Assembly (NCBI GenBank): GCA_964016885.1
Contig: OZ024745.1
Location: forward strand, 105,958,001-106,022,000
Length of the DNA stretch: 64,000 nucleotides
Reading direction: 5' to 3'
Origin: Eledone cirrhosa
Taxonomy: Eukaryota
Both the position numbers and the translations under genes were made by a program. How positions within the stretch are numbered: the stretch's first letter is position 1; each line of letters begins with the position of its first letter. The notes under the pieces are model-generated. The model worked only from the letters and a program-made list of their open reading frames with translations, did no database searches and was not told the origin of the DNA. Below are positions 50,189 to 52,589 of the stretch, piece after piece.

Positions 50189-50232
<44 letters not shown>

Positions 50233-50444
50233 GTAAGTATGAATACGTACATACATATATGTATACACACGTACAGTAGTATGTATATATGTGCATACAT
50301 GCACACAAATATATATATATTATGTACGTATGGGATTACGAACATTTATTATAATGTTCGGATTGTTTGTAAACAAACAGCCCGAAGTAAGCCGTACTGT
50401 GTTCGGCAACCATCGTCGCCCTTTTGTTCAACACTGACAAATGA

Positions 50445-50487
50445 ACGATGAACTAGTTTCAGGCTTATTAGCTATCGTCAGCATCGT
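50445..50487 (-). ncRNA. Type I hammerhead, diverged subfamily (CUGACGA core, GUU site)
   Basis: Reverse complement reads acgatg-CTGACGA-tagctaataagcct-GAAA-ctag-TT-catcgt. The next unit (~50874-50910) is truncated in the core. Confidence 0.8.
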
Positions 50488-50924
50488 ATACCTTCCTGTC
50501 AGATGATTGAACGCTTGAAAGTATATACTTTCCTTATGCATATTAACGGCTGAACAGCCTAATTTGCATATCGAGTGAGTTAATCGGCCGGTGCATCGAA
50601 AACGATAAACGGAAAGAATGAAACGAAATTTCATTTCTCACTCTTAGTACGGCTGTTACTTAAATATAAGTATGTATACGTACATACATGTATGTATTCA
50701 GACGCACAGTAGTATGTATATATATATACATACATGCACACATATATATATGTACGTATGGATTTACCGAGCATTTATTATAATGCTCGGTTTGTTTGTA
50801 AACAAACAGCCCGAGTTAAGCCGTACAGTGTTCGGAAACCATCGTCGCCCTTTTGTTCAACACTGACAAAGGAACGATGAACTAGTTTCGAGCTTATTAG
50901 CTATCGTCATTTCGCTTATACATT

Positions 50925-50960
<36 letters not shown>

Positions 50961-52288
50961 AATTGAAACAAAATGAAAACGAAATTTCATTTCTCACTCT
51001 TAGTATGGCACTTACTTAAATGTAAGTATGCATGTATACGTACATACATATATGTATACAGACGTACAGTAGCATGCACATATATATATATATATACATA
51101 TATACATACATATGCATACAGGTACACATACATATATGCACGTATCAGTTTAGCGGCGCTAACGTCGCTTTGTTCGTTTGTAAACAAACTGAACAGCCTG
51201 AATTTATGCCATACGGTGTTAAGGCAACCACGTCACCTTTTTGTTCAACACTGACACAGGAACGATGTACTAGTTTCAAGCTTGTTAGCTATCATCAGCA
51301 GCGTTTACCCATCTGCCAGATAGTTGAACGTTCGAAAGTATATACTTTCCTTATGAAAATTAACGGCTGAGCAGCCTAATTTGCATATTGAGTGAGTTAA
51401 ATCGGTCAGGCATACCGAAAACGATAAATTGAAACAAAATGAAAACGAAATTTCATTTCTCACTCTTAGTATGGCACTTACTTAAATGTAAGTATGCATG
51501 TACACGTACATACATATATGTATACAGACGTACAGTAGCATGCACATATATATATATATATATACATATATACATACATATATGCACGTATCAGTTTAGC
51601 GGCGCTAACGTCGCTTTGTTCGTTTGTAAACAAACTGAACAGCCTGAATTTATGCCATACGGTGTTAAGGCAACCACGTCACCTTTTTGTTCAACACTGA
51701 CACAGGAACGATGTACTAGTTTCAAGCTTGTTAACTATCATCAGCACCGTTTACCCATCTGCCAGATAGTTGAACGTTCGAAAGTATATACTTTCCTTAT
51801 GAAAATTAACGGCTGAGCAGCCTAATTTGCATATTGAGTAAGTTAAATCGGTCAGGCATACCGAAAACGATAAATTGAAACAAAATGAAAACGAAATTTC
51901 ATTTCTCACTCTTAGTATGGCACTTACTTAAATGTAAGTATGCATGTATACGTACATACATATATGTATACAGACGTACAGTAGCATGCACATATATATA
52001 TATATATACATATATACATACATATGCATACAGGTACACATACATATATGCACGTATCAGTTTAGCGGCGCTAACGTCGCTTTGTTCGTTTGTAAACAAA
52101 CTGAACAGCCTGAATTTATGCCATACGGTGTTAAGGCAACCACGTCACCTTTTTGTTCAACACTGACACAGGAACGATGTACTAGTTTCAAGCTTGTTAG
52201 CTATCATCAGCACCGTTTACCCATCTGCCAGATAGTTGAACGTTCGAAGTATATACTTTCGAACGTTCAACTATCTGGCAGATGGGTA

Positions 52289-52333
52289 AACGGTGCTGAT
52301 GATAGCTAACAAGCTTGAAACTAGTACATCGTT
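52289..52333 (+). ncRNA. Type I hammerhead; minus-strand sister copies at 51261-51305, 51707-51751 and 52173-52217
   Basis: aacggtg-CTGATGA-t agct aaca agct t-GAAA-ctag-TA-catcgtt: helix I is 7 bp with one G-U pair, helix III is the palindrome actagt. Confidence 0.9.
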
Positions 52334-52589
52334 CCTGTGTCAGTGTTGAACAAAAAGGTGACGTGGTTGCCTTAACACCGTATGGCATAAATTCAGGCTG
52401 TTCAGTTTGTTTACAAACGAACAAAGCGACGTTAGCGCCGCTAAACTGATACGTGCATATATGTATGTGTACCTGTATGCATATGTATGTATATATGTAT
52501 ATATATATATATATGTGCATGCTACTGTACGTCTGTATACATATATGTATGTACGTATACATGCATACTTACATATATATATATATATT

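Follow-up and report, generated by a model that had tools for sequence, protein, structure and literature searches.

A high-copy hammerhead retrozyme with paired ends in (TA)n tracts, probably copied by a Neptune-type Penelope-like element

Introduction

How do non-coding hammerhead repeats come to stand in tandem and head to head within one simple (TA)n tract, and which enzyme copies them there? This question is raised by a locus in the window analyzed here, a stretch of 64,000 nucleotides (C5:105958001-106022000) from the 3.0-Gb, microsatellite-rich genome of the animal Eledone cirrhosa. A preliminary description of the sequence had viewed the locus as a tandem retrozyme-like family in which old and young subfamilies lie side by side, and had proposed both selection on ribozyme structure and repeated insertion of related elements into the same TA tract. 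The available text of PMC7229834 (Cervera and de la Pena 2020) defines retrozymes and treats Penelope-like elements (PLEs) as their candidate movers, and that of PMC8557442 names the origin of tandem and inverted PLE insertions with a one-sided tail as unresolved.

Our analyses indicate that the locus probably represents a high-copy, non-coding hammerhead retrozyme, whose tandem and head-to-head copies end at two sites about 59 bases apart in (TA)n, and which was likely copied in trans by the RT-endonuclease of a Neptune-type PLE that would prime both cut ends, one per site.

Results

Structure and setting of the locus

Read on the hammerhead-sense strand, positions 50228-52577 contained two insertions of one non-coding family in a shared (TA)n/(CA)n tract. 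The older insertion was a 1.6-mer and the young insertion a 2.7-mer with a head-to-head inverted arm. The features, in window positions, were as follows:

50228..50660, minus strand: old-subfamily full unit, 433 bp, with its 3' end at the short (proximal) site, into (TA)n
50444..50488, minus strand: the old unit's type I hammerhead, with its CUGACGA core from 50481 and a GUU triplet
50661..50909, minus strand: second old unit, 5'-truncated, containing a hammerhead remnant at 50872-50909
50908..50920, no strand: 13 bp that repeat the right flank (52624-52636) in inverted orientation, located where the old insertion has its 5' junction
50958..51016, minus strand: 59-bp tail with which the young insertion reaches its long (distal) 3' end, continuing into the (TA)n tract 50917-50960
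51017..51482, minus strand: young unit 1 (466 bp), with its hammerhead core at 51298 and cleavage predicted to follow 51268
51469..51476, minus strand: helix A, which adjoins the short start site and is found in every full unit
51483..51928, minus strand: young unit 2 (446 bp), with its hammerhead core at 51744 and cleavage predicted to follow 51714
51929..52260, minus strand: young unit 3, 5'-truncated, hammerhead core 52210
52247..52258, no strand: head-to-head junction, a palindrome native to the unit, 12 bp perfect here and 16 bp in intact units
52247..52577, plus strand: inverted 5'-truncated arm, hammerhead core 52296, ending at the short site in (TA)n
61815..62250, minus strand: sister-family copy, truncated at both ends, hammerhead core at 61932

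The window contains two insertion events, the young insertion having landed in the TA tract beside the old one, much as the preliminary description had proposed. The unit length that it gave (about 430-466 bp) agreed with the 433 bp measured for the old unit and the 466 and 446 bp of the young units, the length changing through the internal TA/CA tract as it had noted, and the adjacent old and young units were 81-85% identical. All five hammerheads were in the places it had assigned to them, the C3 positions being 50481, 51298, 51744 and 52210 for the four minus-strand copies and 52296 for the plus-strand copy. It had overlooked a sixth, truncated hammerhead (50872-50909), which lacks C3 and the 5' strand of helix I, as well as the 59-bp tail (50958-51016).

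The inverted arm was fully complementary (100%) to young unit 3 over 320 nt. The 13-bp flank copy beside the old insertion likely arose by snap-back synthesis from the second DNA end, since such a copy would be expected if that end had been extended on its own flank. Inverted flank copies as a general trait of the family were considered and rejected: four of 26 single-arm loci were flagged, among which one was an N gap, one was part of an inverted arm and one was a simple repeat.

A MARCH-type RING ligase gene on the plus strand seems to contain the locus in one of its introns, 18.5 kb long (42270-60783), which has GT..AG borders and is in frame. The exon at 42060-42269 encodes a RING-variant domain (Pfam RINGv; best PDB match 2d8s), and the exon at 60784-60992 we take to be the likely transmembrane exon of a MARCH-type E3 ligase. 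In the pre-mRNA, the 320-bp inverted repeat would form a perfect duplex that would mask the sense ribozyme and offer a substrate for editing. An RNA-editing footprint in the family was rejected, as an excess of A>G over T>C was seen in the old subfamily only (39 versus 18, p=0.008, one of 18 tests), with no clear excess in the young (45 versus 37) or sister (13 versus 7) families. At 48238-48308, an Rfam tRNA match scored above its gathering score (36 bits) and is possibly the head of a SINE.

The hammerhead motif

The hammerheads belong to type I. Helix I, of 7 bp, continues beyond a bulge; helix II, of 4 bp, has U.U as its closing pair in place of G10.1-C11.1; helix III is palindromic and 2 bp long. 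A strict descriptor recovered three of the five window copies, because the other two carry a helix mismatch. One is the old copy, which has an A.C mismatch in helix II (50462) and a broken extended helix I (50442), and the other is the copy in young unit 1, with a mismatch in helix I (51301); compared with the family, the mismatches at 50462 and 51301 are private to the window. The preliminary description had stated that N7 is C or U, that the cleavage base (H17) is U or A and that the helices contain G-U wobbles, and each of these was found. Its wider view, that differences between copies mostly preserve structure, held for these positions but not for the disruptive changes in two of the five window ribozymes.

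Rfam HH9 scores were below the gathering cut-off of 52 (18.5 bits for the young copies and 38.6 for the relative at 61879), and the Rfam search of the locus otherwise returned just microsatellite-driven miRNA noise. The local hammerhead folds were no better than those of shuffled sequences in five of six cases. At one locus (L150, C1:319889000-319898999), an alternating unit variant had helix III swapped from one palindrome to another, with the potential for dimer pairing kept. Young unit 2 has a C-to-U wobble in helix II, and this wobble of the 446-bp unit, at position 195 of the young-family unit, recurred on several haplotype backgrounds, in part because the search query carried it.

Abundance and composition of the family

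The exact motif of the old and young clades matched the genome 24,854 times and the sister-motif pattern 5,732 times, with no match for the reversed control of either. The former count is well in excess of chance. The description of the family as retrozyme-like was borne out. Core units were 422-468 bp long with a GC content of 0.31-0.36, and the copies were dispersed over many contigs. The sister family, whose unit elsewhere in the genome is 468 bp, was about 62% identical; 12 units of the three clades were 60-98% identical to one another. At one locus (G000:C1:5738324-5752446), 31 tandem sister-family units (14 kb) were followed by a short inverted arm.

No protein-coding ORF was found in the units, which contained only stop-to-stop frames of 114-127 aa through the microsatellite. 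An ORF with RT and GIY-YIG was absent from within the element, the units abutting directly, and no LTR-like arrangement was seen at the window insertions. Sequencing runs X4 and X5 each yielded one low-depth contig (470-486 nt) of the young subfamily, aligning to window positions 51121-51535, and none from the old subfamily, though the latter is far more abundant. The family is a new and very abundant one of non-LTR retrozymes, probably of non-autonomous Penelope-like elements, and its tandem, inverted and tailed architecture is the insertion signature of PLEs.

Selection and RNA fold

We aligned the 12 units of the three clades. Among their cells, 96% pair in a 52-pair structure (34-43% in slid controls), and 12 pairs were changed on both sides: three in helix I, three in helix II, two in the outer extension, three in helix A/B and one in a small hairpin. 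Most of these double changes separate just two or three clades, so the independent events are few. Helix A/B is a long-range helix of 8 bp in which the partner of helix A is segment B, located about 55 nt 3' of the cleavage site, and all of its cells are paired.

Within subfamilies, the 11 core bases were depleted in rare variants (four events in the young, p=0.0008; three in the old, p=0.036), as determined by base- and CpG-matched permutation over loci found by DNA similarity. By contrast, the 24 helix bases mutated as often as the rest of the unit within a subfamily (p=0.27 and 0.25). The very young sister (61820) family had two variants against 1.8 expected, a comparison with no power. The preliminary description's proposal of selection on ribozyme structure was thus sustained for the catalytic core, and by covariation between subfamilies, but not for the helices within a subfamily. 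Substitutions as frequent in the hammerhead as elsewhere, which would speak against such selection, were found in the helices and not in the core. Since the helices were not depleted and two window ribozymes are disrupted, the target of selection is likely to be source copies or template RNAs, not the window copies. These sequence comparisons support selection for the catalytic core and for source lineages, but not for every copy.

The monomer circles were predicted to fold better than shuffled sequences (z of -5.8, -8.4 and -11.5, 30 shuffles each), as were, less strongly, the antisense strands (z -4.0 to -11.2). All three clades retain a ATGCAAAT octamer, which is also part of a predicted RNA helix; as a promoter it was set aside, the octamer not being clearly constrained (p=0.05 and 0.21).

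Two fixed ends and their pairing

The outer ends of the arms, which correspond to the 3' ends of the RNA, lay away from the cleavage site, with one clear case at that site (L008). They fell at two fixed AU-rich sites, each followed by (TA)n, with a spacing of 56-59 nt in the old and young families and of about 70 nt in the sister clade. In the predicted folds of all three clades, the short site would form a small hairpin immediately 5' of helix A, and a U-rich strand after the tail hairpin would be the long site.

A single classifier applied to 122 loci identified 89 inverted pairs and 35 single arms. Both ends were resolved in 69 of the 89 pairs, and 68 of these were long+short (one of which, the second L157 pair, may be a double count), one was long+long (L013) and none was short+short (p=1e-19 versus independent end choice). 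The window pair, which is at the edge of the classifier cut and therefore among the other 20, was long+short by direct inspection. In 39 loci taken from position-ordered lists and chosen after the idea had formed, all 25 resolved pairs were long+short, with five more pairs lacking two resolved ends. Inspection by eye showed several apparent single arms to hide a tiny second arm of the opposite type. Assembly fold-back as an artefactual source of the inversions was rejected because dozens of loci show them, their junctions differ and their ends are asymmetric.

The same pairing was present in an unrelated hammerhead family of 310 bp at 13182-18469, in which 2.3 inverted units and 14.8 identical units (100% homogeneous) lie in (TA)n, the left end being short and the right end long (tail of about 40 nt). 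The plus-strand ribozymes of that array have the orientation of the downstream gene. A possible exception to the pairing rule is a palindrome of two 144-bp arms in (TA)n at 62421-62713, belonging to another family, which shares the short-site motif with the young family and in which both arms end at the same site. A tail related to this palindrome is fused to the L008 arm that ends at the hammerhead cleavage site.

Penelope-like candidates for mobilization

The genome contained 10,596 GIY-YIG candidates, among them one young PLE family with an RT as well as GIY-YIG at the C-terminus (73 scored copies, 98-100% amino-acid identity, mostly open frames). On our own reading of its sequence, the cysteine linker, as described in the available text of PMC8557442, suggests that this family is of Neptune type. 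Its insertions lie in (TA)n, and its two ends are separated by 68 nt. Ten inverted insertions were found among 21 of its loci, and in nine of the ten one arm was proximal and the other read through, the pairing being read by eye and the distal end mapped in seven; the exception, the second L277 element, was short+short. A second PLE family had the same pairing in its one inverted copy (L136).

BLAST and nhmmer comparisons of the units with 50 GIY-YIG and 20 Neptune loci, drawn from the 10,596 candidates, identified no shared sequence beyond nested insertions, and no pLTR homology to the retrozyme was seen in these 70 PLE loci, which are a small part of the candidates. Nested copies in the TA beside PLE ends were rejected as pLTR links, since TA separates them. 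As no sequence was common to the PLE and the retrozyme, we infer the candidate partner from the insertion geometry. In its 3' region, the Neptune-type PLE contains a hammerhead-like fold (L121, about 7370-7420 on the minus strand, and L261-L280), in which U3 and A8 replace C3 and G8 as a paired core change. Hammerheads tolerate a paired U3/A8 change of the core.

Discussion

Together, these observations suggest that insertion likely proceeds by coupled twin priming, with a PLE enzyme acting on RNA that is multimeric or circular. The tandem arrays would be transcribed, and cleavage by the hammerhead would release monomers and oligomers, perhaps circularized afterwards, as in published retrozymes. 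The PLE protein, probably a dimer, would bind the structured domain beside helix A/B and cut both strands of the (TA)n. Two cDNAs, each spanning one to many units, would then be primed at the short and long sites, at which arm ends were observed, and would be joined head to head at scattered points via short overlaps or palindromes, giving the observed junctions. Points that weigh against this mechanism are the failure to find an autonomous partner of related sequence in the 70 PLE loci, the exceptions to long+short pairing, the U.U closure of helix II and the dispensability of the Poseidon hammerhead in vitro.

The same element and PLE partner could also give an inverted arm if a single cDNA folded back at a palindrome and primed itself, with the endonuclease resolving the second end and the tail remaining one-sided. 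Palindromes at inverted junctions are interpreted in this manner in the available text of PMC3846280, and the window junction, which is palindromic and has an arm identical to the adjacent unit along the 320 complementary nucleotides, fits both fold-back and twin priming. A fold-back requires the short arm to be no longer than the long arm minus the tail, unless it is longer by a whole unit. By this limit 21 of 29 insertions of the sister (468-bp) clade are compatible in length, but in the other eight, one of them marginal and one with an extra piece, the arm lengths forbid fold-back in either direction. Also against it, the two 5' breakpoints of these insertions are usually hundreds of nucleotides apart and the junction overlaps are mostly 0-4 nt; 5' breakpoints lay within 10 nt of the cleavage site in four of 58 cases, about the chance level. 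Among 43 loci, six were informative for the order of variants along the arms, and mirror copying was rejected by four of these, fitted by one (L004) and left ambiguous by one, with some of the verdicts depending on a single site. The arm lengths, small overlaps and non-mirror variant order favor two primed cDNAs, one per DNA end, and we consider fold-back to be an unlikely origin of the inverted arms.

The arrays cross the cleavage site without a scar for up to 31 units in a row, which is in keeping with the simple published model for retrozymes, in which each insertion is the product of rolling-circle reverse transcription of one monomeric circular RNA. The homogeneity of the 310-bp array, the folding of the predicted circles and the selection on the core are likewise in its favor. 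That model is nevertheless very improbable for this family. One variant-unit pair recurs in both arms of insertion A1, and period-2 and period-6 unit patterns occur; such mixed arrays would need oligomeric templates, template switching or later exchange. It also leaves the paired ends unexplained, and the antisense strands fold better than shuffled sequences too. Given the mixed arrays, the template was more likely oligomeric, whether linear or circular, than a single monomer circle, and later unequal exchange can contribute. A further point against our preferred mechanism is that arms aligned from their outer ends did not always agree with one RNA, those of A1 being offset by one unit and those of L215 mismatched. 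Another explanation takes the units for nothing more than pLTR stumps left by some long autonomous PLE, or for a satellite amplified through unequal exchange; the ribozyme would then be a passenger, and the higher-order periods could come from unequal exchange. We give this explanation hardly any credence: the units abut directly in the multi-unit arrays examined, with no ORF between them, the copies are dispersed over many contigs with fixed ends, and core depletion and whole-unit covariation speak against a passenger.

If coupled twin priming is correct for the retrozyme, it may extend to PLEs themselves. We propose this tentatively, as a possibility in which we have less than even confidence. 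An asymmetric RT-endonuclease dimer on one structured RNA domain would set a different fixed start for each cut (TA)n end, which would explain both the tail and the inversions. The retrozymes described here would then be minimal templates, with a docking domain and a hammerhead needed in vivo, unlike in vitro, for an oligomeric or circular template. That the catalytic core is constrained suggests that cleavage is important for spreading in vivo, and the fold that covaries around both start sites is a compact candidate for the RNA element recognized by a telomerase-related RT. The near-obligate long+short pairing, which holds for the retrozyme clades as well as for an autonomous PLE from this genome, yields a sharp prediction for use in the in vitro Poseidon assay. 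With a quantified rule for end pairing and a covarying fold, the open question of PLE insertion becomes directly testable, and the family constitutes a natural experiment on how PLEs make tandem and inverted insertions with one tail.

Comparison with known systems

As far as the accessible parts of the literature go, the structural traits described here are all known for PLEs or for retrozymes, the one-sided tail being known qualitatively. Our literature search, which most subscription papers lay outside, found nothing on cephalopod retrozymes, obligate end pairing or twin priming by PLEs. In L1 twin priming, two DNA ends reportedly prime cDNAs that are joined head to head via short complementarity, and the second primer is said to anneal at variable internal sites of one linear mRNA. 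The retrozyme resembles this system in its two primed ends and in cDNAs joined head to head through short complementarity, but it has two fixed sites, and each of its arms can extend over several units.

The promoter of newt satellite 2 contains an octamer. Like that satellite, the family is a tandem hammerhead repeat with the ATGCAAAT octamer, although the octamer here is not clearly constrained and its promoter role is putative. The newt promoter is of the internal snRNA type, as cited in the available text of PMC2220036.

The likeness to metazoan non-LTR retrozymes, so far as these are covered in the accessible text of the published studies, lies in non-coding units that are a few hundred bp long and arranged in tandem, a low GC content, a single type I hammerhead in each unit and a strongly self-paired predicted circle, whereas the unit length here is at the top of their 150-450 bp range and there is an internal microsatellite hairpin. 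The U.U at the base of helix II and the 2-bp helix III resemble those of the axolotl HHR_Amex2, a U.U ribozyme that, according to the portions available of PMC7229834, is weak as a monomer and efficient as a dimer. In the accessible parts of a recent study (Li, Clavereau and Pollet 2026, 10.64898/2026.07.22.740005), one of nine tested dimers cleaved and retrozymes are derived from PLEs by pLTR homology, whereas here animal retrozymes are tied to the PLE machinery by insertion geometry and not by homology. The inverted arms, tails, fixed start sites and (TA)n targeting seen here were not among the retrozyme traits described in the available portions of the published work.

These traits are instead those of PLEs. 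Tandem and inverted copies, tails and (TA)n are given as PLE traits in the available text of PMC8557442 and PMC3846280. In that of PMC11167929, the tail is equated with two internal RT start sites, cutting and extension affect both strands, a dimer is predicted, and the Poseidon hammerhead is dispensable for insertion in vitro. Like the insertion units of Neptune and Poseidon in the accessible text, the family has partial tandems, 5' truncation, a head-to-head inverted copy, a one-sided tail, palindromes at some junctions, a (TA)n or AT-rich target and two internal start sites. It differs from them in having no RT-EN ORF and in a tail of 56-71 nt rather than 30-40. In Neptune and Poseidon, so far as described there, the tail is optional or often on one end, whereas in the retrozyme the pairing of a long with a short end is near-obligate.
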